A stretch of DNA of 64,000 nucleotides from Escherichia coli. GTDB lineage: Bacteria; Pseudomonadota; Gammaproteobacteria; Enterobacterales; Enterobacteriaceae. Positions 1 to 45,479 of the stretch are shown here, piece by piece. Under the pieces are notes generated by a model, which was not told where the DNA came from, ran no database searches, and was given only the letters and a program-made list of their open reading frames with translations. The stretch lies in assembly GCF_044647545.1 (NCBI RefSeq), contig NZ_CP172818.1, one strand, 5' to 3'. A program made the translations under genes and the position numbers. Position 1 is the first letter of the stretch. Every line of letters starts with the position of its first letter.

Positions 1-461
1 TCCATGCACAATGCGCGAGCGATCGCCACACGCTGCTGCTGACCGCCGGAAAGCTGCGCCGGAAACTTATTGGCATGAGCGGAAAGCCCGACGCGCTCCA
101 GCAATTTCAATGCTTTTTCACGAGCGGGGGCTTTATCGCGTTTAAGCACTTTCACCTGCGCCAGGGTCAGGTTTTCAATAATCGACAAATGGGGGAACAA
201 CTCGAAATGCTGGAACACCATCCCGACGCGGGAACGCAGCTTTGCCAGATCGGTTTTCTTATCGTTAACCACGATACCATCGACGGTAATTTCACCTTGC
301 TGCACCGGTTCGAGGCCGTTGACGGTTTTAATCAGCGTTGATTTGCCGGAACCAGACGGGCCGCAAACCACCACCACTTCGCCTTTTTTCACTTCGGTTG
401 AGCAGTCGGTCAGCACCTGAAAGTGACCATACCATTTTGAAACATTTTTCAGGGTAATCAT
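1..461 (-). CDS. gltL: Glutamate/aspartate ABC transporter ATP-binding protein, 3' end truncated by window edge
   Basis: Reverse-strand translation from ATG at 459-461 gives Walker A (GPSGSGKST) and ABC signature (LSGGQQQR); start overlaps gltK stop (TAATG); position in gltIJKL operon. Confidence 0.85.
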   Translation of the reverse strand, partial: MITLKNVSKWYGHFQVLTDCSTEVKKGEVVVVCGPSGSGKSTLIKTVNGLEPVQQGEITVDGIVVNDKKTDLAKLRSRVGMVFQHFELFPHLSIIENLTLAQVKVLKRDKAPAREKALKLLERVGLSAHANKFPAQLSGGQQQRVAIARALCM

Positions 462-1135
462 TATGCTGTCCTTCTTTTCAAGTAGCTGACCAACAACGAT
501 GCGCTAAGGCTAATAACGAAATAAACAAATCCGGCAAACAGGATCATCTCGACCTGCGTACCATCACGCTCACCAATGGTTGAGGCGGTACGGAAGAAAT
601 CGGCCAGAGATAACACATACACCAGTGAGGTATCCTGGAACAGTACGATGCCCTGAGTGAGCAGAAGCGGCACCATCGCGCGGAAAGCCTGCGGCAGAAT
701 AATCAGTTTCATCGACTGCCAGTGAGTCATCCCCAACGCCAGCGCGGCGCTCGACTGACCACGGGAAATACTTTGAATACCGGCACGGATAATCTCTGAA
801 TAGTAGGCCGCTTCAAACATCGAAAACGCCACCATCGCCGAGATTAAACGGATATCATTTTTTGGCGATAATCCCAGCACGTTTTGCAGAAAACCCGGCA
901 CAATCAGGTAAAACCACAGCAAAACCATAACTAAAGGAATCGAGCGGAATACGTTAACGTAGGCTTTGGCAAACCACGCTACGGGCGCAAAGCTGGACAA
1001 GCGCATCACCGCCAGCATGGTGCCCCACAAAATACCAATCACGACTGCCGTGACGGTGATTTTCAGGGTGATCACCAGCCCATCCAGCAGATACGGCAGG
1101 GAAGGAACAATGGAACTCCAGTCAAACTCGTACAT
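461..1135 (-). CDS. gltK: Glutamate/aspartate ABC transporter permease
   Basis: 224 aa ORF, polar amino-acid permease family, operon context. Confidence 0.9.
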
Positions 1136-1875
1136 TATTTGCCCCCCATGTTGCCGGGCAGGCGAACTTTACGTTCAACCAGCGTCATCACCAGCATGAT
1201 AAAAGCGTTAATCAACACATACGCAAGCGTAATGGCGGTAAACGACTCCCAGGCGTGAGCGGAGTAATCGAGTAATTTACCCGCCTGCGCCGCCATATCT
1301 ACCAGACCGATAGTCGAGGCGATGGCGGAGTTTTTCACCAGGTTCATCATCTCGGAGGTCATCGGCGGGACGATAACGCGATAAGCGTTAGGCAACAGTA
1401 CGTAGCGGTAAGCCTGCGGTAGCGTCAGCCCCATCGCCAGCGCGGCATTCTTCTGCCCACGCGGCAGCGACTGAATAGCGGCGCGTACCTGTTCGCAAAC
1501 ACGGGCGGCGGTAAACAGCCCCAGGCAAAGCATGGATGAAAGGAAAAACTGAATATTGGGATCCAGCTCGGCCTTAAACCACATGCCGATTTTCTCCGGC
1601 AGCAGCTCCGGGATCACCAGATACCAGGTAAAGAATTGCACAATCAACGGCACGTTGCGGAACAGTTCGACATACAACGTACCCAGACCGGAGAGAAAAC
1701 GGTTTGGAACGGTACGTAAAATGCCGAAAAATGAACCGACGAGGAAAGCGATAATCCAGGCGCAGATCGACAAAGCGATCGTCACCTGAAAGCCACTCCA
1801 GATCCAACCAAGATAGGTGGTGTTGCCGAACGGGGCTTGTTGTAAAAAAATACCCCAGTTCCAGTCTATAGACAT
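1135..1875 (-). CDS. gltJ: Glutamate/aspartate ABC transporter permease
   Basis: 246 aa ORF, overlapping start/stop with gltK. Confidence 0.9.
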
Positions 1876-1885
1876 AAATCTACTC

Positions 1886-1921
1886 CAGAAAAAAGAGGGT
1901 AGCAGCGTTAACTGCTACCCT
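1886..1921 (-). terminator. Intrinsic terminator in gltI-gltJ spacer
   Basis: Hairpin gagggtagcag/ctgctaccctc followed by U-run on minus strand. Confidence 0.6.
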
Positions 1922-2044
1922 CGAAGATTGTTACCCAGCGTATTGCGGTTTTCAGGCCCGATGGGGAACGACCACCAGGCGTATAGTCTGTCCGTGCTAC
2001 GTAACAATCGAGAGGGCTGGAATTTCCGCCCCTGGTTCTTGTAA
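1886..2044 (-). ncRNA. sroC: SroC sRNA (processed from gltI-gltJ intergenic region)
   Basis: Position between gltI stop and gltJ start ending at the intergenic terminator; boundaries approximate, from established knowledge. Confidence 0.4.
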
Positions 2045-2953
2045 TTAGTTCAGTGCCTTGTCATTCGGTTCTTTGAACAGTGCTTTCATTTCGTCTGACA
2101 GTTCGAAATTCATGTTCAGGTTTTTCGGCGGAATTGGGTTTTTGAACCACTTATCAAACCATTTTTCCGCTTCACCGGAGGTCTGCACCTGAGCGATAGT
2201 GTCATCCATCAGCTTTTTGAACTGCGGATCGTCTTTACGCAACATGCAACCGTAGGCTTCCTGAGACTGCGGCTTGCCGACGATTTCCCAGTTGTCTGGT
2301 TTCTTCGCTTTCGCACGTTCACCGGCCAGCAGGGCATCATCCATCATAAAGGCAACGGCACGACCGCTTTCCAGGGTGCGGAAAGAGTCACCGTGATCTT
2401 TGGCGCTGATGATGCGCATGTTCATTTTTTGCTCTTCATTCAGTTTGTTGAGCAAAACTTCAGAGGTGGTGCCGGAAGTGACTACGACGGCTTTGTCTTT
2501 CAGATCGGCAAAATCTTTAATATCGCCGCCTTTTTTTGTCAGCAGGCGCGTACCGACCACGAAAATAGTGTCGGAGAAAGCCGCCTGTTTTTGGCGTTCG
2601 ACGTTGTTGGTGGTAGAACCGCATTCAAAATCGAAAGTGCCGTTTTGCAGCAGTGGAATACGGTTTTGTGAGGTGATCGGAATCAATTTCACCTGTAAGT
2701 CTGGTTTGTTGAGTTTCTTTTTCACTGCTTCAACAATGGCGTTGGAGTAATCCTGCGAGTAGCCCACCACTTTTTGCTGATTGTCGTAATAAGAGAAAGG
2801 TACTGAAGATTCACGGTGACCGACGACAATCACGCCGTTTTTGGCGATTTTGTCCAGCGTGCTGCCTGCTGCCGGGGCGGCGTCATCTGCCTGTGCCAGT
2901 CCTGCGGAAAGCGCCAGGGCCAGGATTGCTGTGGCAGGTTTACGTAATTGCAT
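2045..2953 (-). CDS. gltI: Glutamate/aspartate periplasmic binding protein
   Basis: ORF 2045..2959; signal peptide MQLRKPATAILALALSAGLAQA; 302 aa from second Met. Confidence 0.9.
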   Translation of the reverse strand: MQLRKPATAILALALSAGLAQADDAAPAAGSTLDKIAKNGVIVVGHRESSVPFSYYDNQQKVVGYSQDYSNAIVEAVKKKLNKPDLQVKLIPITSQNRIPLLQNGTFDFECGSTTNNVERQKQAAFSDTIFVVGTRLLTKKGGDIKDFADLKDKAVVVTSGTTSEVLLNKLNEEQKMNMRIISAKDHGDSFRTLESGRAVAFMMDDALLAGERAKAKKPDNWEIVGKPQSQEAYGCMLRKDDPQFKKLMDDTIAQVQTSGEAEKWFDKWFKNPIPPKNLNMNFELSDEMKALFKEPNDKALN

Positions 2954-3050
2954 ATCCAACTCCTTTATCTTCTGCGTTAAAAACGCATGGATACCCGTTG
3001 TGAGTGTTTGTGTTGTTATCTCTGCGACTTTTTGTGCGGTTGTGTTTTGG

Positions 3051-3082
<32 letters not shown>

Positions 3083-3649
3083 TTAGGTAACATTTAGTTT
3101 GGATAAATGTAAAGGTATTGCTGTTTTATTGTTTGTTTTTGCGAGATGCGCCGCACCATTCCGAAGCAAAATTCTTAAACTGCACCTTTTTGGTGCTACC
3201 GCTGATTTGTGGTGGTGCAACCCGGTTGCGTCGCGGTTGATTTCATTGCTTACACAGTAAATAAAGCAACTTACATGCCAAAAAATACTTAGGGGTGCAT
3301 TAATTACGATTGTAATTTCAGTTTGAAAAAGTCATATTTCGGACAGTGTTAACTTTTCGGTGTGGGAATTTTGCCGGGATGATAACTACACACGGGAAAA
3401 TGTTTTTTACTAGTCTTTTCAAGGAAAAATCACTTTATGTCTGCATCTTCGGTTAAGCCGTTAAATGTTCAATTACCCGCAATAACCCTGATCCTTTTTG
3501 CGCTCTGTGTTGGGATATTTTGTTACCTCGCACAATGGATGAGTTACAAAAAAGTCAATAAATCCGCACTCATCCATCTCGGCGCTAACTTTCTCTCTCT
3601 CACGTTGTCGGGTAAACCCTGGCGTTTATTTAGCAGTGTCTTTTTACAG

Positions 3650-5060
3650 TATTTTTTCTCTTTTATAGATATATATTTTTGCACTCTGGTTAGGGGGGAG
3701 GGGGGGAAGGGAAAATGGGGAAAAGGGGATCCCTATTGTTTGCCTTTTTCTCTCGGGTTTGTGTGGTGAGCACATCGTCTTGTGTTATGCGCGAAAAAAA
3801 AGAGAAAAGATAGATAGGTGGGGGGGCCGGGGGAAAAAAGGAAAAAAAGGGGGGGCGGTAAGAAAAAAACACTTCTTTAGGGGGGAGAACACAATAAAAA
3901 ACAGCGGCGAGGTTTTTTCCTTTTTGGTGGGGTGGCGCTAACGTTGTGTTGCGGCCCGGGAAAAAGAGAAAAAAAAAGCCTCTTCAATGGCGGGGCCGTG
4001 GGTGGGGGGGGGGGTTGGGTGGGGGGGGGCCCGGTTAGGTGGGACAAAACCGTTTCGTAAGGAAGGGCGAGTTTTTTGTGGCTCTTCTTTTCTCCGGCGG
4101 GGTATTTCGGGTGTGCAGCAGCAGAATGATGAAAAATTTTTTTAAAATAGGGGAAAACCGCGTGAAAAGTTTTTTTCCCAGGAGAATAAACAAAAGGAGC
4201 GAAAAAAAAAACAACAATTTAGGGGGGAGGGCAAAGCCCCCACCGAAACATTATCCGCTCCGGTAAGTCGTGAGGAGGCCAGTGGTGATTTACTCGCTGA
4301 GATTGCCGATAACCATGATATGGCGATCAATCGGGATGGTAATACGTTATATGCCGCAAATGAAAACACGAACAGTATTTTTTTTTTCGACCTCGGACAA
4401 AAGAAAATCTCCCATACTTTTATACCGCCCATAGCAAAAAAAAAAAAACACAAAAATTGTGGGGTCTGTAAAAATAAGGGGGTAAGATGGCGGTGGTTAA
4501 GCCCGAAAAAAAGGTTTTTTTATCCACTTTTATTTAAAATGAATGCGTGATCGTTAATAAAGGGGCGGAGGGGGGGGATAATTCAGTCAATAACCACCTG
4601 CACACATCCTGACAGTTTTATCCTCTCGTGGAATGAAAAAAAAGCTGGGTGAATAATGCAACCAATAAAATGTATTTATTCATCTATTGATTTATTAACT
4701 TATAAGGAAGGAGATGCCGCCCGAAAAAAAAAAAACGGGGGGGGGAGGAGGGGAAAAAGACGCCCGTGTGATATTACTCTCCGCGGTAAAAAAACATTGT
4801 TGATACCGCTTGGATTGAGAGAAAGCATATTCGAATCAATAACATCACGAATCATAAAGTAGAATTTCCCACATGTGATGGGTGTGGTGTCGTTGTTGTG
4901 ATGGGAGTATGATAACGAAAAAATAATAGTATTTTTATCGATAATATCGAGGGTATACGAGTAAAAGTTTAAGGATAGAAAAAAAAGAAGCAAAGATCAA
5001 AAGGGAGTGGTGAAACCGTTATCTCTATTAGGTTGAGAGGCAGGAGTGTAAATAGTTGTG
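3650..5060. repeat. Low-complexity purine homopolymer-rich block (G-runs to 11, A-runs to 12), no coherent ORF
   Basis: Runs of G and A interleaved with short AT-rich stretches; ORF-track peptides here are homopolymer translations (K/G/F runs). Confidence 0.8.
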
Positions 5061-5423
5061 TTTTGGTCTGGATGGCAAAGGGATTGTAACCTTTTTTAAT
5101 ATAAAGCCGGGGAAAAGATTGGCGGTTTTTCTCCCCATAACTTTTATTCTTCTCTGTTTTTCAGCGGATGGTAGAAAGATATTTGTTATGGCGAAGAACG
5201 GGTTAATCCAAATGGACAGGACGCGCTCGCTTGATCCGCAGGCAATTATTCGGCATCCCCAATATGGTGATGTGGCTTGTATCCCTGAACCGTAAGAAAA
5301 AGGGGCATGATAATCACGCCCGAAGTAATGAGAAAGTACGTTTTGTTGATACCGGATGCGGTGTTAACGGTTTATTTAGCCTGCAAAAATGATGCAATTT
5401 TGCAGGCCAGCGCATCATTTACA

Positions 5424-6965
5424 TCAACGTTTACGTCGCTGACGCAGACTCATCAACACAGCGGCAAAACCAAACAGCGCCGTAAGCACCCACAGCGGCC
5501 AGTTGCCGGTACGTGCGTACGGTGTGAGTCCGGTAGTCGGCGTCACGTTAGTGGTCAACACTTCGCGGGTGAACTGCGGGATCATTGCCTGAATCTCACC
5601 CTGCGGGCCAATCACCGCCGTAATACCGTTGTTGGTGCTACGCAGCAATGGGCGCGCCAGCTCCAACGCACGCATTCGCGCCATCTGGAAGTGCTGCCAT
5701 GGACCAATAGACTTACCAAACCACGCATCGTTGGAGATAGTCAGCAGATAGTCGGTATCCGGGCGGAAGTTATCGCGCACTTGCTCGCCGAGAATGATCT
5801 CGTAGCAAATAGCCGCAGTAAGCTCAATACCATTTACCGACAGCGGCGGCTGGATATATGGCCCACGGCTGAACGACGACATCGGCAGATCAAAGAACGG
5901 TGCTAACGGACGCAGAATCGACTCCAGCGGGACAAACTCGCCAAACGGCACCAGATGGTTTTTGTTATAGCGATCGGCTGATTCATAGCTGTACGGTGCG
6001 CCTTTACCCAGTGTGATGATGGTGTTGTAGGTATCGTAGCGGTTCTGCTTATTGAGACGCGCGTCGACAATCCCGGTGACCAGCGAGCTACCTTTATCGC
6101 GCAACTCACCGTCCAGAGCTTTGAGGAACGGTTGCTGATTAATTTCCAGATCGGTTATCGCCGACTCCGGCCAGATAATCAACGATGATTTGCCCATCAG
6201 CGGTGCCGTTGCGTTGTAGTAAATCTTCAGCGTATTAAGAAGCTGGCCTTCGTCCCATTTCAGCGATTGCGGAATATCGCCCTGAACCATCGAAACCTGA
6301 ATGGTTTTCTCCGGTTGCGGGGTAAACCACTGGATGTAACGCAGCGGGAAGGGTAGGGCAAACAGCACGACGGCCACCACCAGCGGACGCCAGTTGCGTT
6401 TGACTAACGCCAGTGCCAGCAGGCCGCTAACCATCATAAGCAGGAAGTTAATGGCTTCCACGCCCATTAGCGGTGCCAGCCCTTTTAACGGGCCATCAAT
6501 CTGGCTATAGCCGAACTGTAACCACGGGAAGCCAGTCAGCACCCAACCGCGCAGAAACTCGGTCACTTGCCAGAGAGCAGGAGCGGCAATCGCCACGCGC
6601 AGCCAGGTGGTTTTCGGCCACAGACGCGACAGCACGCCAGCAAACAGTCCGGTATACAGCGACAAATACGCCGCCAGCAGTACCACCAGGAAGATGTTAA
6701 CCGGGCCAGGCATTCCGCCAAAGGTCGCGATGCTGACATAGACCCAGTTAATACCGCTGCCAAAGAGACCAAATCCCCAGCAAAAGCCAATAGCGGCAGA
6801 CTGGAGTGGACGGCGGTTAAAGGTCAGCGCCTGAAGCCCCATCAGCGAAATAATCGCCGCAGGCCAGACATCGTAAGGAGAGAAGGCCAGCGTTCCGCAG
6901 GCACCGAATAATAACGCCAGCAGCAGGCGAATGCGCTGGCGTTCAATTAATGAGGCAAAAGCCAT
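5424..6965 (-). CDS. lnt: Apolipoprotein N-acyltransferase
   Basis: 513 aa ORF, N-terminal membrane segments plus nitrilase-like domain, context lnt-corC-ybeY-ybeZ. Confidence 0.9.
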
Positions 6966-6989
6966 GTAGTTATCTATCCAGTTTCGGTT

Positions 6990-7868
6990 TTATTCATCCA
7001 GCTTCGGCTGGGGTGAGTCATCCGGGATTTTGACATGAACCTGAATAATACGCCGACTGTCGGCCATCGCCACTTTGAACTGGTAACCGTCGATGTCGAT
7101 GGTTTCGCCACGCGCCGGAAGATGCCCAAATGCCTGCATCACCAGACCACCGATAGTGTCAACCTCTTCATCGCTAAAGTGGGTACCGAACGCTTCGTTG
7201 AAGTCTTCAATGGAAGCCAGTGCGCGCACGGTCCAGGTATGACGACTCAACTGACGGAAGTCGATATCATCTTCTTCGTCATACTCGTCTTCAATCTCAC
7301 CAACAATCAGTTCCAGGATGTCTTCAATGGTCACCAGACCGGAAACCCCACCGAATTCGTCAATGACGATCGCCATGTGGTAACGCTGAGAGCGAAACTC
7401 TTTCAGCATCCGGTCTACGCGCTTACTTTCAGGAACGACAACCGCCTGACGTAACACTTTGTCCATGCTGAAGGCTTCAGCATCGCTGCGCATAAACGGC
7501 AGCAAGTCTTTCGCCATCAGAATCCCTTCAATGTGATCTTTGTCTTCGCTAATCACCGGGAAACGTGAGTGGGCGGACTCGATGATGACATCAAGGCATT
7601 CGTCCAGTGTCTGGTTGCGTTTCAGGGTAATCATCTGGGAGCGGGGGATCATGATGTCGCGGACGCGTTGGTCTGCGATGTCCATCACCCCTTCGAGCAT
7701 ATCGCGCGTATCTTCGTCGATAAGGTCGTTCTGCCCGGAATCACGGATCAGCGCCAGCAGTTCGTCACGGTTTTTCGGTTCACCGTGGAAAAGTTGGCTG
7801 AGTAACAGGGAGAAAAATCCCTTCTTGTTGCTTATCGTGTCACTACTGTGTGAATTGTCGTCGCTCAT
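6990..7868 (-). CDS. corC: Mg/Co efflux-associated CBS-domain protein
   Basis: 292 aa ORF, CBS pair plus CorC_HlyC C-terminus. Confidence 0.9.
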
Positions 7869-7957
7869 GGCGTCGTATGGGTTCTCATGTTAGTTAATCA
7901 AAACGCCGTCGTTAATCACCAACGGCGGGGACGTCTGCCAGTCAAATGCCTGGCAAA

Positions 7958-8425
7958 TTATTCTTTCTCGGCAATGTACGGATCCTCATAGCCCAGAGCA
8001 AGCATAATCTCTGTTTCGAGGGCTTCCATTTCTTCTGCTTCGTCATCTTCGATGTGATCGTAACCTAACAAATGCAGACTGCCGTGCACCACCATATGCG
8101 CCCAGTGCGCCTCCAGTGGTTTGCCTTGCTCCTGAGCTTCCTTCTCAACCACCTGACGGCAGATAACCAGATCGCCCAGTAGCGACATTTCCATGCCAGG
8201 CGGCACTTCAAACGGGAAGGAGAGCACGTTGGTCGGCTTATCCTTACCGCGATAGGTCAGATTCAGACTGTGGCTTTCGGCGGTATCGACCACGCGAATA
8301 GTCACTTCCGACTCTTCCTGAAACTGCGGGATCACCGCATTCAGCCATGTCTGAAACTGGCTCTCTTCCGGTAACCCGGAATTATCTTCACATGCCAGTT
8401 GTAAATCGAGGATCACCTGACTCAT
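7958..8425 (-). CDS. ybeY: Endoribonuclease YbeY (16S rRNA 3' maturation)
   Basis: 155 aa ORF with HGxLHLxGYDH metal-binding motif. Confidence 0.9.
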
Positions 8426-9462
8426 TTTTGTTCCTGTTCTTCGCGCTTGCGTTCTGCTGCCAGCGCCGCTTTACGTTTTTGTTCGGCTTCTTCCCAGGCT
8501 TCATAAGCGTTAACGATACGCGCCACCACCGGGTGACGAACCACGTCTTCGCTGTGGAAGAAGTTAAAGCTGATCTCTTCAACATCGGCCAGCACTTCGA
8601 TGGCGTGACGCAAGCCTGACTTGGTATTACGCGGCAGGTCGATCTGTGTGACGTCGCCGGTGATAACCGCTTTTGAGTTAAAACCGATACGGGTCAGGAA
8701 CATCTTCATCTGTTCGATGGTGGTGTTCTGGCTCTCATCGAGAATGATAAACGCGTCGTTCAGCGTACGACCACGCATATAGGCCAGCGGCGCGACTTCA
8801 ATAACGTTGCGCTCAATCAGTTTCTCGACTTTCTCAAAGCCCAGCATTTCAAACAGCGCGTCGTACAGTGGGCGCAAATACGGGTCTACTTTCTGGCTTA
8901 AATCGCCAGGCAGGAAGCCCAGTTTCTCACCGGCTTCTACCGCCGGACGAGTCAGCAGAATACGGCGAATTTCCTGACGCTCCAGGGCATCAACTGCCGC
9001 AGCCACTGCCAGGTAGGTTTTACCCGTACCCGCCGGGCCAACGCCGAAGGTGATGTCATGGTCGAGAATATTGGCGATGTACTGCGCCTGGTTTGGCGTG
9101 CGCGGCTTGATTACGCCGCGTTTGGTTTTGATATTGACCGCTTTGCCGTACTCCGGCACGCTCTCCGCGCTTTGCTCCAGTACCCGCGCTTCTTTAATCG
9201 CAAGGTGGATCTGTTCCGGTTCGATATCCTGAATCTGACCACGCATCGGGGCAGTATCGACATACAGGCTACGCAGAATGTCTGCCGCAGCGGTGACGCA
9301 AATCGGACGGCCGGTCAGTTTAAAGTGGTTATCGCGGCGATTGATCTCGATGCCGAGACGGCGTTCGAGCTGCTTGATGTTGTCATCAAACGGGCCGCAC
9401 AGGCTCAACAGACGCGCATTGTCTGCTGGCTCCAGGGTGATTTCGCGAGTGTCTATGTTCAA
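8422..9462 (-). CDS. ybeZ: PhoH-like ATPase
   Basis: ORF 8422..9501; Walker [10 protein letters not shown]-12-length product (346 aa) implies TTG start at 9462, the ATG at 9501 is an alternative. Confidence 0.85.
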
Positions 9463-9614
9463 ACCGTTCCTCTTATCTGTATGCCGCCGGAAGCTGAACA
9501 TTCACCGGCCTATAAGGAAATTATTCACGCCACAGGAAAAAGGCGCAAGCATTGCGATAAAGATGGGGATAAAGAGAGAAAAAACAAGGCCCACCGGAAC
9601 GGCGGGCCTGAGAA

Positions 9615-11039
9615 TTACGGCTGATAATAACCCACGCCAAGGTCGTTTTCTTTGCGGGTACGGGCAATCACCGATTCCGGCGTTTCTGCCACGCGCAGAC
9701 CCATTTCATCTTCAGTACGCACCACTTTACCGCGCAGAGAGTTCGGGTAGACGTCGGTAATTTCTACATCGACGAATTTACCGATCATATCTGGCGTGCC
9801 TTCAAAGTTGACCACGCGGTTATTTTCAGTGCGACCGGAAAGCTCCATGATGCTCTTACGCGATGTACCTTCTACCAGAATACGCTGGGTGGTGCCGAGC
9901 ATCCGGCGGCTCCATGCCATTGCTTGCTGATTAATACGTTCTTGCAGAATATACAGACGCTGCTTCTTCTCTTCTTCCGGAACATCATCAACCATATCGG
10001 CGGCTGGTGTACCTGGACGTGCAGAGAAGATAAAGCTGTAGCTCATGTCGAAATTGACGTCGGCAATCAGCTTCATCGTTTTCTCGAAGTCTTCGGTGGT
10101 TTCGCCAGGGAAGCCAACGATGAAGTCAGAACTGATCTGAATATCCGGACGCGCCGCACGCAGTTTACGGATGATCGCTTTGTACTCCAGCGCTGTATGG
10201 GTACGTCCCATCAGGTTCAGAATGCGATCGGAACCGCTCTGTACCGGCAGATGCAGGAAGCTCACCAGCTCCGGCGTGTCGCGATACACTTCGATGATAT
10301 CGTCGGTGAATTCGATCGGATGGCTGGTGGTAAAGCGAATACGATCGATCCCGTCGATCGCCGCAACCAGACGCAGCAGATCGGCAAACGATCCGGTGGT
10401 GCCGTCGTAGTTTTCACCACGCCAGGCGTTCACGTTCTGACCGAGCAGGTTGACTTCACGCACGCCCTGAGCCGCAAGCTGGGCAATTTCAAACAGAATA
10501 TCGTCGGACGGACGGCTTACCTCTTCACCACGGGTGTAAGGCACCACGCAGTAGGTGCAATATTTATTGCAGCCTTCCATGATGGAGACAAACGCGGTCG
10601 GCCCTTCGGCGCGCGGTTCTGGCAGACGGTCAAACTTCTCGATTTCCGGGAAGCTGATATCTACAACCGGGCTGCGGTCGCCGCGCACGGAGTTGATCAT
10701 CTCCGGCAGACGGTGCAGCGTTTGCGGCCCAAAAATAATATCGACATAGTGGGCGCGCTGGCGAATGTGCTCGCCTTCTTGCGATGCCACGCAGCCGCCG
10801 ACGCCGATTATCAGGTCTGGATTCTTCTCTTTTAACAGTTTCCAGCGACCCAACTGATGGAAGACTTTTTCCTGAGCCTTCTCGCGGATTGAGCAGGTGT
10901 TCAGCAGCAGCACATCCGCTTCTTCCGCCACGTCGGTCAGTTGATAGCCGTGGGTGGCATCCAGCAGATCGGCCATCTTCGATGAATCGTACTCGTTCAT
11001 CTGACAGCCCCAGGTTTTAATATGGAGTTTTTTGGTCAT
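9615..11039 (-). CDS. miaB: tRNA-i6A37 methylthiotransferase
   Basis: 474 aa ORF with radical-SAM CxxxCxxC motif (CNKYCTYC). Confidence 0.9.
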
Positions 11040-11184
11040 CGACTTGCTCTTGCGAAATAGTAGCCAGGAATGCAGGGCGCATAGTGTAATGCTTTGCTGC
11101 CGTTGTGACCAGTATGAGCGTTATCAGCCCTTGGGGGTAAAAATCCTGTAAACTTAAAGCATATTGCTAACAGGATGATTGACC

Positions 11185-12360
11185 ATGACAAATCAACCAA
11201 CGGAAATTGCCATTGTCGGCGGAGGAATGGTCGGCGGCGCACTGGCGCTGGGGCTGGCACAGCACGGATTTGCGGTAACGGTGATCGAGCACGCAGAACC
11301 TGCACCGTTTGTCGCTGACAGCCAGCCTGACGTGCGGATCTCGGCGATTAGTGCGGCTTCGGTATCATTGCTTAAAGGTTTAGGCATCTGGGACGCGGTA
11401 CAGGCTATGCGTTGCCATCCTTACCGCAGACTGGAAACGTGGGAGTGGGAAACGGCGCATGTGGTGTTTGACGCCGCTGAACTTAAGCTACCGTTGCTTG
11501 GCTACATGGTGGAAAACACTGTCCTGCAACAGGCGCTGTGGCAGGCGCTGGAAGCGCATCCGAAAGTAACGTTACGTGTGCCAGGCTCGCTGATTGCATT
11601 ACATCGAGATAATGATCTTCAGGAGCTGGAGCTGAAAGGCGGTGAAGTGATCCAGGCGAAGCTGGTGATTGGCGCTGACGGTGCAAATTCGCAGGTGCGG
11701 CAAATGGCGGGAATTGGCGTTCATGCCTGGCAGTATGCGCAGTCGTGTATGTTGATTAGCGTACAGTGCGAGAATGATCCCGGCGACAGCACCTGGCAGC
11801 AGTTTACTCCGGACGGGCCGCGTGCGTTTTTGCCGCTGTTTGATAACTGGGCGTCGCTGGTGTGGTATGACTCTCCGGCGCGTATTCGCCAGTTGCAGAA
11901 TATGAATATGGCGCAGCTCCAGGCGGAAATCGCGAAGCATTTCCCGTCGCGTCTGGGTTACGTGACACCGCTTGCCGCTGGTGCGTTTCCGCTGACACGT
12001 CGCCATGCGTTGCAGTATGTGCAACCAGGGCTTACGCTGGTGGGCGATGCCGCGCACACCATTCATCCGTTGGCGGGGCAGGGGGTTAACCTCGGTTATC
12101 GCGATGTTGATGCGCTGATTGACGTTCTGGTGAATGCCCGCAGCTACGGTGAAGCGTGGGCCAGTTATCCTGTCCTCAAGCGTTACCAGATGCGGCGTAT
12201 GGCGGATAACTTCATTATGCAAAGCGGTATGGATTTGTTTTATGCCGGATTCAGCAATAATCTGCCACCACTGCGTTTTATGCGTAATCTCGGATTAATG
12301 GCGGCGGAGCGTGCTGGCGTGTTGAAACGTCAGGCGCTGAAATATGCGTTAGGGTTGTAG
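11185..12360 (+). CDS. ubiF: FAD-dependent ubiquinone biosynthesis hydroxylase
   Basis: ORF 11179..12360; GGGMVG dinucleotide-binding motif; start at second Met assumed. Confidence 0.85.
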   Translation: MTNQPTEIAIVGGGMVGGALALGLAQHGFAVTVIEHAEPAPFVADSQPDVRISAISAASVSLLKGLGIWDAVQAMRCHPYRRLETWEWETAHVVFDAAELKLPLLGYMVENTVLQQALWQALEAHPKVTLRVPGSLIALHRDNDLQELELKGGEVIQAKLVIGADGANSQVRQMAGIGVHAWQYAQSCMLISVQCENDPGDSTWQQFTPDGPRAFLPLFDNWASLVWYDSPARIRQLQNMNMAQLQAEIAKHFPSRLGYVTPLAAGAFPLTRRHALQYVQPGLTLVGDAAHTIHPLAGQGVNLGYRDVDALIDVLVNARSYGEAWASYPVLKRYQMRRMADNFIMQSGMDLFYAGFSNNLPPLRFMRNLGLMAAERAGVLKRQALKYALGL

Positions 12361-12390
12361 CCTTACAACATTGCCGGATGCATGCCAACC

Positions 12391-12426
12391 GTAGGTCGGA
12401 TAAGACGCGTCAGCGTCGCATCCGAC
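12391..12426. repeat. REP (repetitive extragenic palindrome) element
   Basis: gtaggtcggataagacgcgtcagcgtcgcatccgac matches REP consensus. Confidence 0.6.
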
Positions 12427-12480
12427 TTTGAAGGATAAGACGTGTCAACATCGCATTCGACATTGAATATACGCAGAAAA

Positions 12481-12510
12481 GCAAAAAGCTCGCCGAAGCG
12501 AGCTTTTTTA
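12481..12510. terminator. Bidirectional intrinsic terminator (ubiF / tRNA operon)
   Basis: Hairpin gctcgc-cgaa-gcgagc flanked by A-run and T-run. Confidence 0.6.
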
Positions 12511-12513
12511 ATG

Positions 12514-12588
12514 TGGCTGGGGTACGAGGATTCGAACCTCGGAATGCCGGAATCAGAATCCGGTGCCTTACCGCTTGGCGATACCCCA
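12514..12588 (-). tRNA. glnX: tRNA-Gln (anticodon CUG)
   Basis: 75-nt cloverleaf sequence read on reverse strand, anticodon loop UUCUGAU, 3' CCA encoded. Confidence 0.9.
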
Positions 12589-12625
12589 ACTGGGTGCACT
12601 TACAAGGTAAGCGTCTTGAATAAAT

Positions 12626-12700
12626 TGGCTGGGGTACGAGGATTCGAACCTCGGAATGCCGGAATCAGAATCCGGTGCCTTACCGCTTGGCGATACCCCA
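12626..12700 (-). tRNA. glnV: tRNA-Gln (anticodon CUG)
   Basis: Identical copy of the preceding tRNA-Gln(CUG). Confidence 0.9.
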
Positions 12701-12748
12701 ACAAATTGGTTTTTGAATTTGCCGAACTTATTCGACACATTCAGAATT

Positions 12749-12825
12749 TGGTGGCTACGACGGGATTCGAACCTGTGACCCCATCATTATGAGTGATGTG
12801 CTCTAACCAACTGAGCTACGTAGCC
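12749..12825 (-). tRNA. metU: tRNA-Met elongator (anticodon CAU)
   Basis: 77-nt tRNA, anticodon loop with CAU, 3' CCA. Confidence 0.9.
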
Positions 12826-12840
12826 AGATTGTTTCTTCGA

Positions 12841-12915
12841 TGGCTGGGGTACCTGGATTCGAACCAGGGAATGCCGGTATCAAAAACCGGTGCCTTACCG
12901 CTTGGCGATACCCCA
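12841..12915 (-). tRNA. glnW: tRNA-Gln (anticodon UUG)
   Basis: 75-nt tRNA, anticodon loop UUUUGAU. Confidence 0.9.
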
Positions 12916-12949
12916 ATAACCGGGCGGTGAACCGCTTACTCGAAGAAGA

Positions 12950-13024
12950 TGGCTGGGGTACCTGGATTCGAACCAGGGAATGCCGGTATCAAAAACCGGT
13001 GCCTTACCGCTTGGCGATACCCCA
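12950..13024 (-). tRNA. glnU: tRNA-Gln (anticodon UUG)
   Basis: Identical copy of tRNA-Gln(UUG). Confidence 0.9.
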
Positions 13025-13047
13025 TCCGTACAACGCTTTCTGGTGAA

Positions 13048-13132
13048 TGGTGCGGGAGGCGAGACTTGAACTCGCACACCTTGCGGCGCCAGAACCTAAA
13101 TCTGGTGCGTCTACCAATTTCGCCACTCCCGC
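13048..13132 (-). tRNA. leuW: tRNA-Leu (anticodon UAG)
   Basis: 85-nt class II tRNA with long variable arm. Confidence 0.9.
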
Positions 13133-13140
13133 AAAAAAGA

Positions 13141-13217
13141 TGGTGGCTACGACGGGATTCGAACCTGTGACCCCATCATTATGAGTGATGTGCTCTAACC
13201 AACTGAGCTACGTAGCC
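13141..13217 (-). tRNA. metT: tRNA-Met elongator (anticodon CAU)
   Basis: Identical to the metU copy at 12749..12825. Confidence 0.9.
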
Positions 13218-13256
13218 ATCTTTTTTTTCGCGATACCTTATCGGCGTTGCGGGGCG

Positions 13257-13286
13257 CATTATGCGTATAGAGCCTTGCAGCGTCAA
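13257..13286 (-). promoter_or_regulatory. Candidate sigma70 promoter of the metT tRNA operon with GC-rich discriminator
   Basis: On minus strand TTGACG, 17-nt spacer, CATAAT, then GCGCCCC discriminator immediately upstream of metT. Confidence 0.5.
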
Positions 13287-13586
13287 CCTCTTTTTCAAGG
13301 AAAATTGCTCGAAAGTGACTGTTTGGTTAGGTTGCGAACAGCGTGGCGCTATATTCGTCAATTATTGTTTACTTTGTGTTTTTTCCCCACCCTACAGCCA
13401 TTCTTTTGTCATACAGGATGAAATTCGGAATTCAACAATAGTGGTGGGAAATTAATCTATGAAATACTCCCTTCAACAACACAGGATTACCTCATTTCTA
13501 CCACACATTTATTAGGAATACTATCTTTTATACATTATTACTTAAACCTCCAACCAAACCGAAAAAAATATTTTTTAAAATTAAAA

Positions 13587-13645
<59 letters not shown>

Positions 13646-13744
13646 GAAGCGTGGCCTACAGTGATGAATTGTCAAACAGTGATGTGGCAAACCCGGAACA
13701 TTTCCTTACTGCATATCAGAATCAACAAGCACCTCAATAACTGA

Positions 13745-15446: not shown

Positions 15447-15700
15447 AACCTTCTCCGTTAACCTGGTATTTGTTGCTTGTTGTGTTTGCTTGTTTAAAAA
15501 ATGCCGCAAAGCAGCACGGTGCGCAAGCGATTTGGCGGTGGAAAAATAAAAAACGTAATGGCGATTGCTGATTTGTGAAAAAGGATAGGGTGTGGTGGCG
15601 TATTTATTGATGGATCGATAATTTTTGACGGGTTTTATTGAATAGGATGATTTTAATGATGGCTAAAATAAGAAACCACGCCCTGAGGCGTGGTTGCTAT

Positions 15701-23884: not shown

Positions 23885-23903
23885 GTTTACGTTGTCGGAT
23901 AGA

Positions 23904-45322: not shown

Positions 45323-45479
45323 TTGCTGAGTTCTGAATACATTGAAAACCGCCAGCGGAAACGCTGGCGGTTTTATATAAATTTTCCTATTTTCTTTCTA
45401 CATTCTCACTTAAGCTTTCTTTAAATCTGTAGTTTCGCCTGTCAGCAGACAAATAACCCGATAAAACAAGGATGAGCAG

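Follow-up and report, generated by a model that had tools for sequence, protein, structure and literature searches.

The window, a stretch of 64,000 nucleotides from an Escherichia coli genome, opens at positions 1-9500 with the region gltL-gltK-gltJ-gltI ... lnt-corC-ybeY-phoH, and between gltI and lnt lies an accessory gene on the plus strand (Table 1). RefSeq names the product of this gene 'rhomboid family intramembrane serine protease' (WP_022645354.1, 625 aa). With the intact locus as query, the gene turns up at 93-100% nucleotide identity in 3231 of 5426 complete E. coli genomes (~60%), the intact gltI-lnt allele being carried, for example, by strains IMT16316 and FDAARGOS_497. One intact copy of the gene lies at 367773-369650 of NZ_CP023815.1. 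K-12 is without it, and there IS5D (insH3) adjoins the site. The family is nothing new to the databases, and has already been annotated by NCBI in thousands of E. coli genomes. For DNA alignments, we used two intact reference loci (L001 and L002), in the first of which positions 2008-3885 are the counterpart of window positions 3437-5295.

Table 1. Features of the gltI-lnt interval and of the second disturbed segment in the window.
Feature	Position	Strand	Basis
gltI	2045-2959	minus	
28-nt poly-A, absent from intact genomes	3051-3078	.	alignment
Whole garbled rhomboid-propeller gene	3437-5295	plus	global alignment to L001/L002, tblastn, intact-locus annotation
Intact 5' end, residues 1-37 (N-terminus, start of TM1)	3437-3547	plus	100% identity to L001 over 3438-3547
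Garbled block A: rhomboid core with GASG and His motifs, TM7, helical linker	3548-4249	plus	53-95% identity per 40 nt
Nearly clean island: linker end and blade 1, residues ~272-325	4250-4410	plus	97% identity per 40 nt at 4253-4372
Garbled block B: blades 2-6	4411-5160	plus	53-88% identity per 40 nt
Intact 3' end: blade 7 and C-terminus (FSADGRKIFVMAKNGLIQMDRTRSLDPQAIIRHPQYGDVACIPEP*)	5161-5295	plus	translation and alignment
lnt	5424-6965	minus	
Second garbled block, most of a 145-aa hypothetical gene (WP_000943487.1)	13469-13651	plus	alignment to intact segment

The copy of this gene in the window occupies 1859 nt, against 1878 nt (625 aa) in its intact form, and stops and frameshifts interrupt its reading frame many times. 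In a global alignment, window positions 2900-5500 are nevertheless collinear with the intact locus (2601 vs 2594 nt). Identity per 40 columns is 1.0 up to ~3547, falls to 0.53-0.75 at 3640-4250, rises to 0.97 at 4253-4372, falls again to 0.53-0.88 at 4410-5150, and returns to 1.0 from 5187. At the protein level, tblastn recovers remnants of residues 1-625 in order across 3437-5292, distributed over three frames. The ATG at 3437 does not share the reading frame of the clean island (4250-4410), and the region that codes for the GASG motif has been replaced by runs of G and A. The 110-aa ORF at 3437-3766 has no Pfam match, and an antisense ORF at 4142-4453 has no family match. As written, the window copy cannot encode a rhomboid domain or a propeller protein. 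Set against the WP_022645354.1 allele, it shares locus, orientation and length class, and its clean parts are identical or 97% identical, but ~1.6 kb of it are unreadable, with the catalytic Ser/His region and blades 2-6 garbled. Since its clean parts agree with the IMT16316 allele, the gene is probably undamaged in the real strain.

Our interest in this locus began with a short peptide. The frame that starts at 4320 translates to MAINRDGNTLYAANENTNSIFFFDLGQKKISHTFIPPIAKKKK..., just as the original prediction had quoted it, and window positions 4320-4430 correspond to residues 300-336 of WP_022645354.1. A gap-free BLASTP alignment pairs window 4230-4550 with residues 272-375 of the intact protein, 75 of 104 positions being identical (E 1e-48), and the DNA of 4253-4372 shows 97% identity to the intact gene. 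In the AlphaFold model of the intact protein, residues 299-302, 308-313, 318-323 and 328-334 are the strands of one four-stranded blade. Within it D305 is invariant among 20 homologues, and G306, Y310 and N317 are nearly so. The peptide is a genuine blade 1 of a seven-bladed YVTN propeller.

Its YVTN membership follows from homology to the intact protein, which passes the TIGR02276 repeat model. Taken alone, the fragment (4230-4439 or 4320-4430) has no match to TIGR02276 at E<=10, and its best profile scores, to Pfam Lactonase (E 0.025-0.084) and to TIGR03866 (PQQ_ABC_repeats; E 0.03-0.07), are not significant; a single blade is too short to score, and so reaches no profile threshold. A profile search of the fragment, which had been put forward as a check, is therefore a misleading one, since it yields no significant hit and would wrongly refute a blade whose homology is plain at E 1e-48. 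The prediction of a YVTN/YncE-type blade was sound in that the intact homologue passes TIGR02276, the best match of the model is 1L0Q, and residues 299-334 form one four-stranded blade. 'YncE-type' holds for the kind of blade but does not extend to orthology with YncE (NF052280 33 bits vs a cutoff of 400). The blade was also thought to be isolated, and it is not: remnants of all 625 residues lie collinear in three frames at 3437-5292, and the last blade and C-terminus (~5160-5292) are intact as well. Homopolymers do flank and enter the blade frame (A10 at 4202-4211, T10 at 4378-4387, A13 at 4436-4448), and 13 of the 18 runs of at least 8 bases in the window sit in 3051-4986.

The intact protein comprises seven predicted membrane helices, a helical linker and a 7-bladed propeller. 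Its residues 59-201 match Pfam Rhomboid (PF01694) at 100.3 bits (cutoff 22.6), and TIGR02276 matches two stretches at 58.7 bits (E 4.1e-16; cutoff 27.85). The catalytic Ser of GxSG in TM4 and His in TM6 are present, together with the WR and HxxxN motifs. Across an alignment of 20 homologues from E. coli, Klebsiella aerogenes, Pseudoduganella and metagenomic sequences, W62 R63, H76, N80, G131-A-S133-G134, H187 and G189 G190 are invariant down to 25% identity, as are further positions of the propeller. Four Cys are conserved in the propeller, C621 in all 20 homologues and C346, C349 and C529 in at least 90% of them. The AlphaFold model has a mean pLDDT of 80.5, with the propeller mostly at 85-95. 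It places membrane helices up to about residue 233, made up of the rhomboid core helices and one extra membrane helix (residues 209-233), followed by two long helices at 237-276 and then ~28 strands at 289-600 (7 x 4). Blade starts counted by eye from the sequence repeats, near residues 299, 354, 396, 449, 492, 533 and 576, agree with this layout. The top PDB match of the model is 1l0q_A (E 1.9e-16 over 310 columns, 21% identity), and the predicted fold is a seven-bladed propeller of four-stranded blades, as in solved YVTN propellers.

In rhomboid cores of the GlpG type, six TM helices leave both ends in the cytoplasm. A seventh helix beyond this six-TM core would therefore leave the C-terminal propeller facing the periplasm, and the conserved Cys of the propeller fit an oxidising compartment. 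In such an arrangement the rhomboid core, a putative Ser133/His187 protease, would cleave membrane-protein substrates, while the periplasmic propeller would be a binding module for ligands or substrates. If Bacillus subtilis YqgP is taken as a guide, the propeller most likely acts as a module that selects or regulates the substrates of the predicted Ser133/His187 protease.

Several known proteins resemble parts of this architecture. 1L0Q, the founding YVTN propeller structure, comes from a Methanosarcina mazei surface-layer protein; the likeness consists in the TIGR02276 match and, in the predicted model, in the seven four-stranded blades. In E. coli a membrane protease is joined to the propeller, which is predicted to be periplasmic, whereas in 1L0Q it is a module of an archaeal S-layer with a PKD domain after it. 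YncE of E. coli is likewise a periplasmic 7-bladed propeller with similar blade motifs (Pfam YNCE E 5.7e-5), but is a soluble stand-alone protein, and YncE orthology was rejected on a local single-blade match to NF052280 (33.1 bits vs a cutoff of 400). E. coli GlpG belongs to the same catalytic family, and the WR, HxxxN, GxSG and H..GG motifs are kept, but the fusion goes beyond GlpG by one C-terminal TM helix and a periplasmic domain, and it does without the cytoplasmic N-domain of GlpG. The scores against the GlpG equivalogs TIGR04239 and NF008155 (42.3 vs a cutoff of 250 and 36.6 vs 335) rule out GlpG identity, and rhombosortase is ruled out as well (TIGR03902 47.5 bits vs a cutoff of 84).

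A parallel in layout is Bacillus subtilis YqgP (GluP), which like the E. coli protein combines a rhomboid core with an extracytoplasmic C-terminal repeat domain. In YqgP this is a TPR domain, for which binding of protein or peptide ligands has been suggested (PMC7231995). The two proteins differ in that YqgP has three TPR motifs and an N-terminal cytosolic domain, while the E. coli protein has a 7-bladed propeller and only ~14 residues before TM1. Our search of the literature found no paper on a fusion of a rhomboid with a propeller or YVTN domain, and nothing relevant beyond YqgP. The intact fusion also occurs in Shigella sonnei and Klebsiella aerogenes (50% identity) and, at 25-33% identity, in Pseudoduganella and metagenomes, and several homologues are labelled 'rhomboid protease GluP' by JGI. 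Further matches are limited to the rhomboid domain, ~40% identical over ~30% of the query, and carry TPR repeats in place of the propeller.

The disturbed sequence around the blade has a character of its own. Aligned to the intact gene, the window copy differs by 384 substitutions and ~80 gap columns. The substitutions fall at 129/128/127 over the three codon positions, with a ts:tv ratio of 138:246, and in 270 cases the new base is a neighbour of the original base, where 183 are expected (p 2e-19). C is lost 138 times and A gained 142 times, and runs of at least 7 bases number 22 in the window copy vs one in the intact gene. Natural alleles behave differently. In a control comparison of the ST131 and IMT16316 alleles there are 77 differences, at 20/11/46 over the codon positions and with ts:tv 55:22, the ORF is intact, and no neighbour bias is seen (30 vs 36 expected). 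We considered a naturally divergent allele as the cause of the low identity and rejected it, given that natural alleles are 93-100% identical and keep the ORF. A single base-specific bias was also rejected, as the gene loses C and gains A, G or T on the plus strand, while in the second disturbed segment of the window (13469-13651) G is lost and the sequence degenerates to A. Neighbour copying changes direction at the clean island, with previous:next counts of 35:12 at 3900-4250 and 14:40 at 4410-4800 (Fisher p 1e-6), as is expected from a base-calling error that depends on read direction. All of this happens within a genome whose flanks in the window are 99.8-99.99% identical to IMT16316, with zero differences at 5421-13467 and two in the 31.7 kb after 13651.

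A spectrum of this kind, limited to 1.6 kb of a near-identical genome, appears from sequence comparison to be that of a noisy but register-preserving copy rather than of evolution. We infer from it, with high confidence, that the low-complexity block is a sequencing or assembly artefact. About 1.6 kb of the gene would then be a length-preserving noisy copy of the true sequence, in which the replaced bases would mostly have given way to a copy of a neighbouring base, so that homopolymers arose, and clean reading would be limited to a few short parts (the 5' end, 4250-4410 and the 3' end). The exact garbled 110-aa ORF stands on an NCBI record with a single contig of 4,499,902 bp, so that the sequence is a genuine public deposit, and this length is short beside the 4.9-5.2 Mb of the closest relatives. 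The garbled sequence is absent from all 5426 RefSeq complete E. coli genomes, among which the nearest match reaches 85%, and was not found by an exact-string scan of GTDB representative genomes.

These observations bear on the possibility that the strain truly carries the sequence as given, as an old pseudogene of the rhomboid-propeller gene worn down by ordinary mutational decay. Many stops and frameshifts do break the ORF, as they would in a pseudogene, and the sequence does stand so in the public record. We nonetheless regard this as very unlikely. The divergence of ~23% is found only within 1.6 kb, between flanks that are 99.8-100% identical to other strains, and no allele closer than ~85% exists among 5426 genomes. 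Transversions outnumber transitions and neighbour copying is strong, unlike in the natural allele control, and a second block of the same style decays to poly-A.

This second block, at 13469-13651, lies between tRNA-Met (metT) and asnB, and a scan of the window for homopolymer density showed it to be the only other garbled block. Here a 426-nt segment, intact in 986 of 5426 complete E. coli genomes, has been reduced to 183 nt: G residues are lost first, ~60 nt of poly-A follow, and the sequence is exact again from 13652. A third disturbance lies in the intergenic region upstream of gltI, where four 1-nt deletions at 3020-3038 stand beside the 28-nt poly-A. The three share a relationship to K-12. 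The limits of the second block match a K-12-absent segment within ~2 nt at each end, all discrepancies of the first block (3368-5420) fall inside the K-12-absent segment 3229-5429 and stop 10 nt short of the point where homology to K-12 begins again, and the poly-A at 3051-3078 is a few bases from the IS5D (insH3) site of K-12. The two garbled blocks are also the only segments of the window longer than ~30 nt that are inserted relative to K-12, and deletions relative to K-12 are clean, for example at 23896.

Because the garbled blocks and the poly-A coincide with structural differences from K-12, we consider it somewhat probable that the assembly was built with the assistance of a reference, on a K-12-like backbone, and that low-quality data were used to fill the strain-specific insertions. 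Such a K-12-guided build alone does not account for the clean island at 4250-4410, which matches only the 3236 genomes that carry the gene and has no paralogue in K-12 or elsewhere in E. coli. Nor does it account for the clean margins of ~140-320 nt in the first block, compared with none in the second.

The same two blocks could be read as the work of a real, targeted hypermutation, natural or engineered, in which some process overwrites recently acquired low-GC genes and leaves the core genome untouched. Both blocks do fall within accessory genes of low GC that share a strand, and the second is sharply limited. The mutation spectrum, however, fits no known mutator, as substitutions affect all four bases, C most often, and take their new base from a neighbour. 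Deaminase-based systems give transitions and DGRs change adenines, and hypermutation of either type is ruled out by the spectrum. Stretches of 28 and ~60 nt of poly-A also appear, the direction of copying flips along the first block, and errors that end within 10 nt of a boundary of K-12 homology point to comparison with another genome rather than to a property of the DNA. We hold such a process to be even less credible than an old pseudogene.

The original prediction had spoken of a fragment of a real gene in corrupted or inserted sequence, and the two halves of that phrase fare differently. The sequence is corrupted, in the sense that the surroundings of the blade are the garbled remainder of the same gene. 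The idea that the homopolymer-rich flanks are foreign or inserted DNA, which has interrupted the gene and left one blade, draws on the shift in composition at 3600-5100, where GC skew reaches up to +0.5 and C falls to 15%. It is exceedingly improbable, given that the gltI-lnt length is kept (2601 nt in the window, 2594 nt intact), that identity to the intact gene, in register, drops below 53% in no 40-nt bin, and that the protein remnants are collinear. That the propeller-like motif is a chance frame in low-complexity DNA, as had been allowed for, can practically be dismissed, for although the fragment alone falls below all profile thresholds, it matches the intact protein at E 1e-48 in a syntenic position and with 97% nucleotide identity over 4253-4372.

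With a sequencing or assembly artefact as the preferred reading, this assembly would contain localised severe errors at strain-specific insertions, and further odd low-complexity stretches of this genome, among them the second block at 13469-13651 and the poly-A at 3051-3078, should be taken as artefacts and not as biology. As a discovery, the finding is a minor one: the blade comes from an annotated gene, and its odd surroundings are most likely bad sequence. What the locus does bring into view is the intact gene, a second rhomboid protease with a predicted periplasmic YVTN propeller that is present in ~60% of complete E. coli and missing from K-12. The rhomboid-propeller protein is a reasonable but unremarkable target for studies of bacterial rhomboid substrates.

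Elsewhere in the window, several differences from IMT16316 were seen. An 8-kb Rhs element at 45374-53394 occupies the rhsC position between ybfA and ybgA and is absent from the near-identical IMT16316. Its 1394-aa Rhs protein (45480-49661) has an identical counterpart next to priA/rpmE in other genomes, and the element could be a natural Rhs exchange or a repeat-mediated misassembly. Beyond abrB, at 62186-64000, the window carries the ybgO/ybgP fimbrial genes as in K-12 (97-98% identity), where IMT16316 has a TRAP-transporter/UxaA cluster instead, so that, compared with its closest match, the window's genome is a mosaic. Against IMT16316, small indels occur at 15664, 55354, 57670 and 5296. Three of these change the length of a homopolymer (A5 to A4, G5 to G6 and A6 to A5), and the fourth removes 4 nt; either natural variation or further minor mistakes of the assembly may lie behind them, and two of the four lie at or beside K-12 indel junctions.
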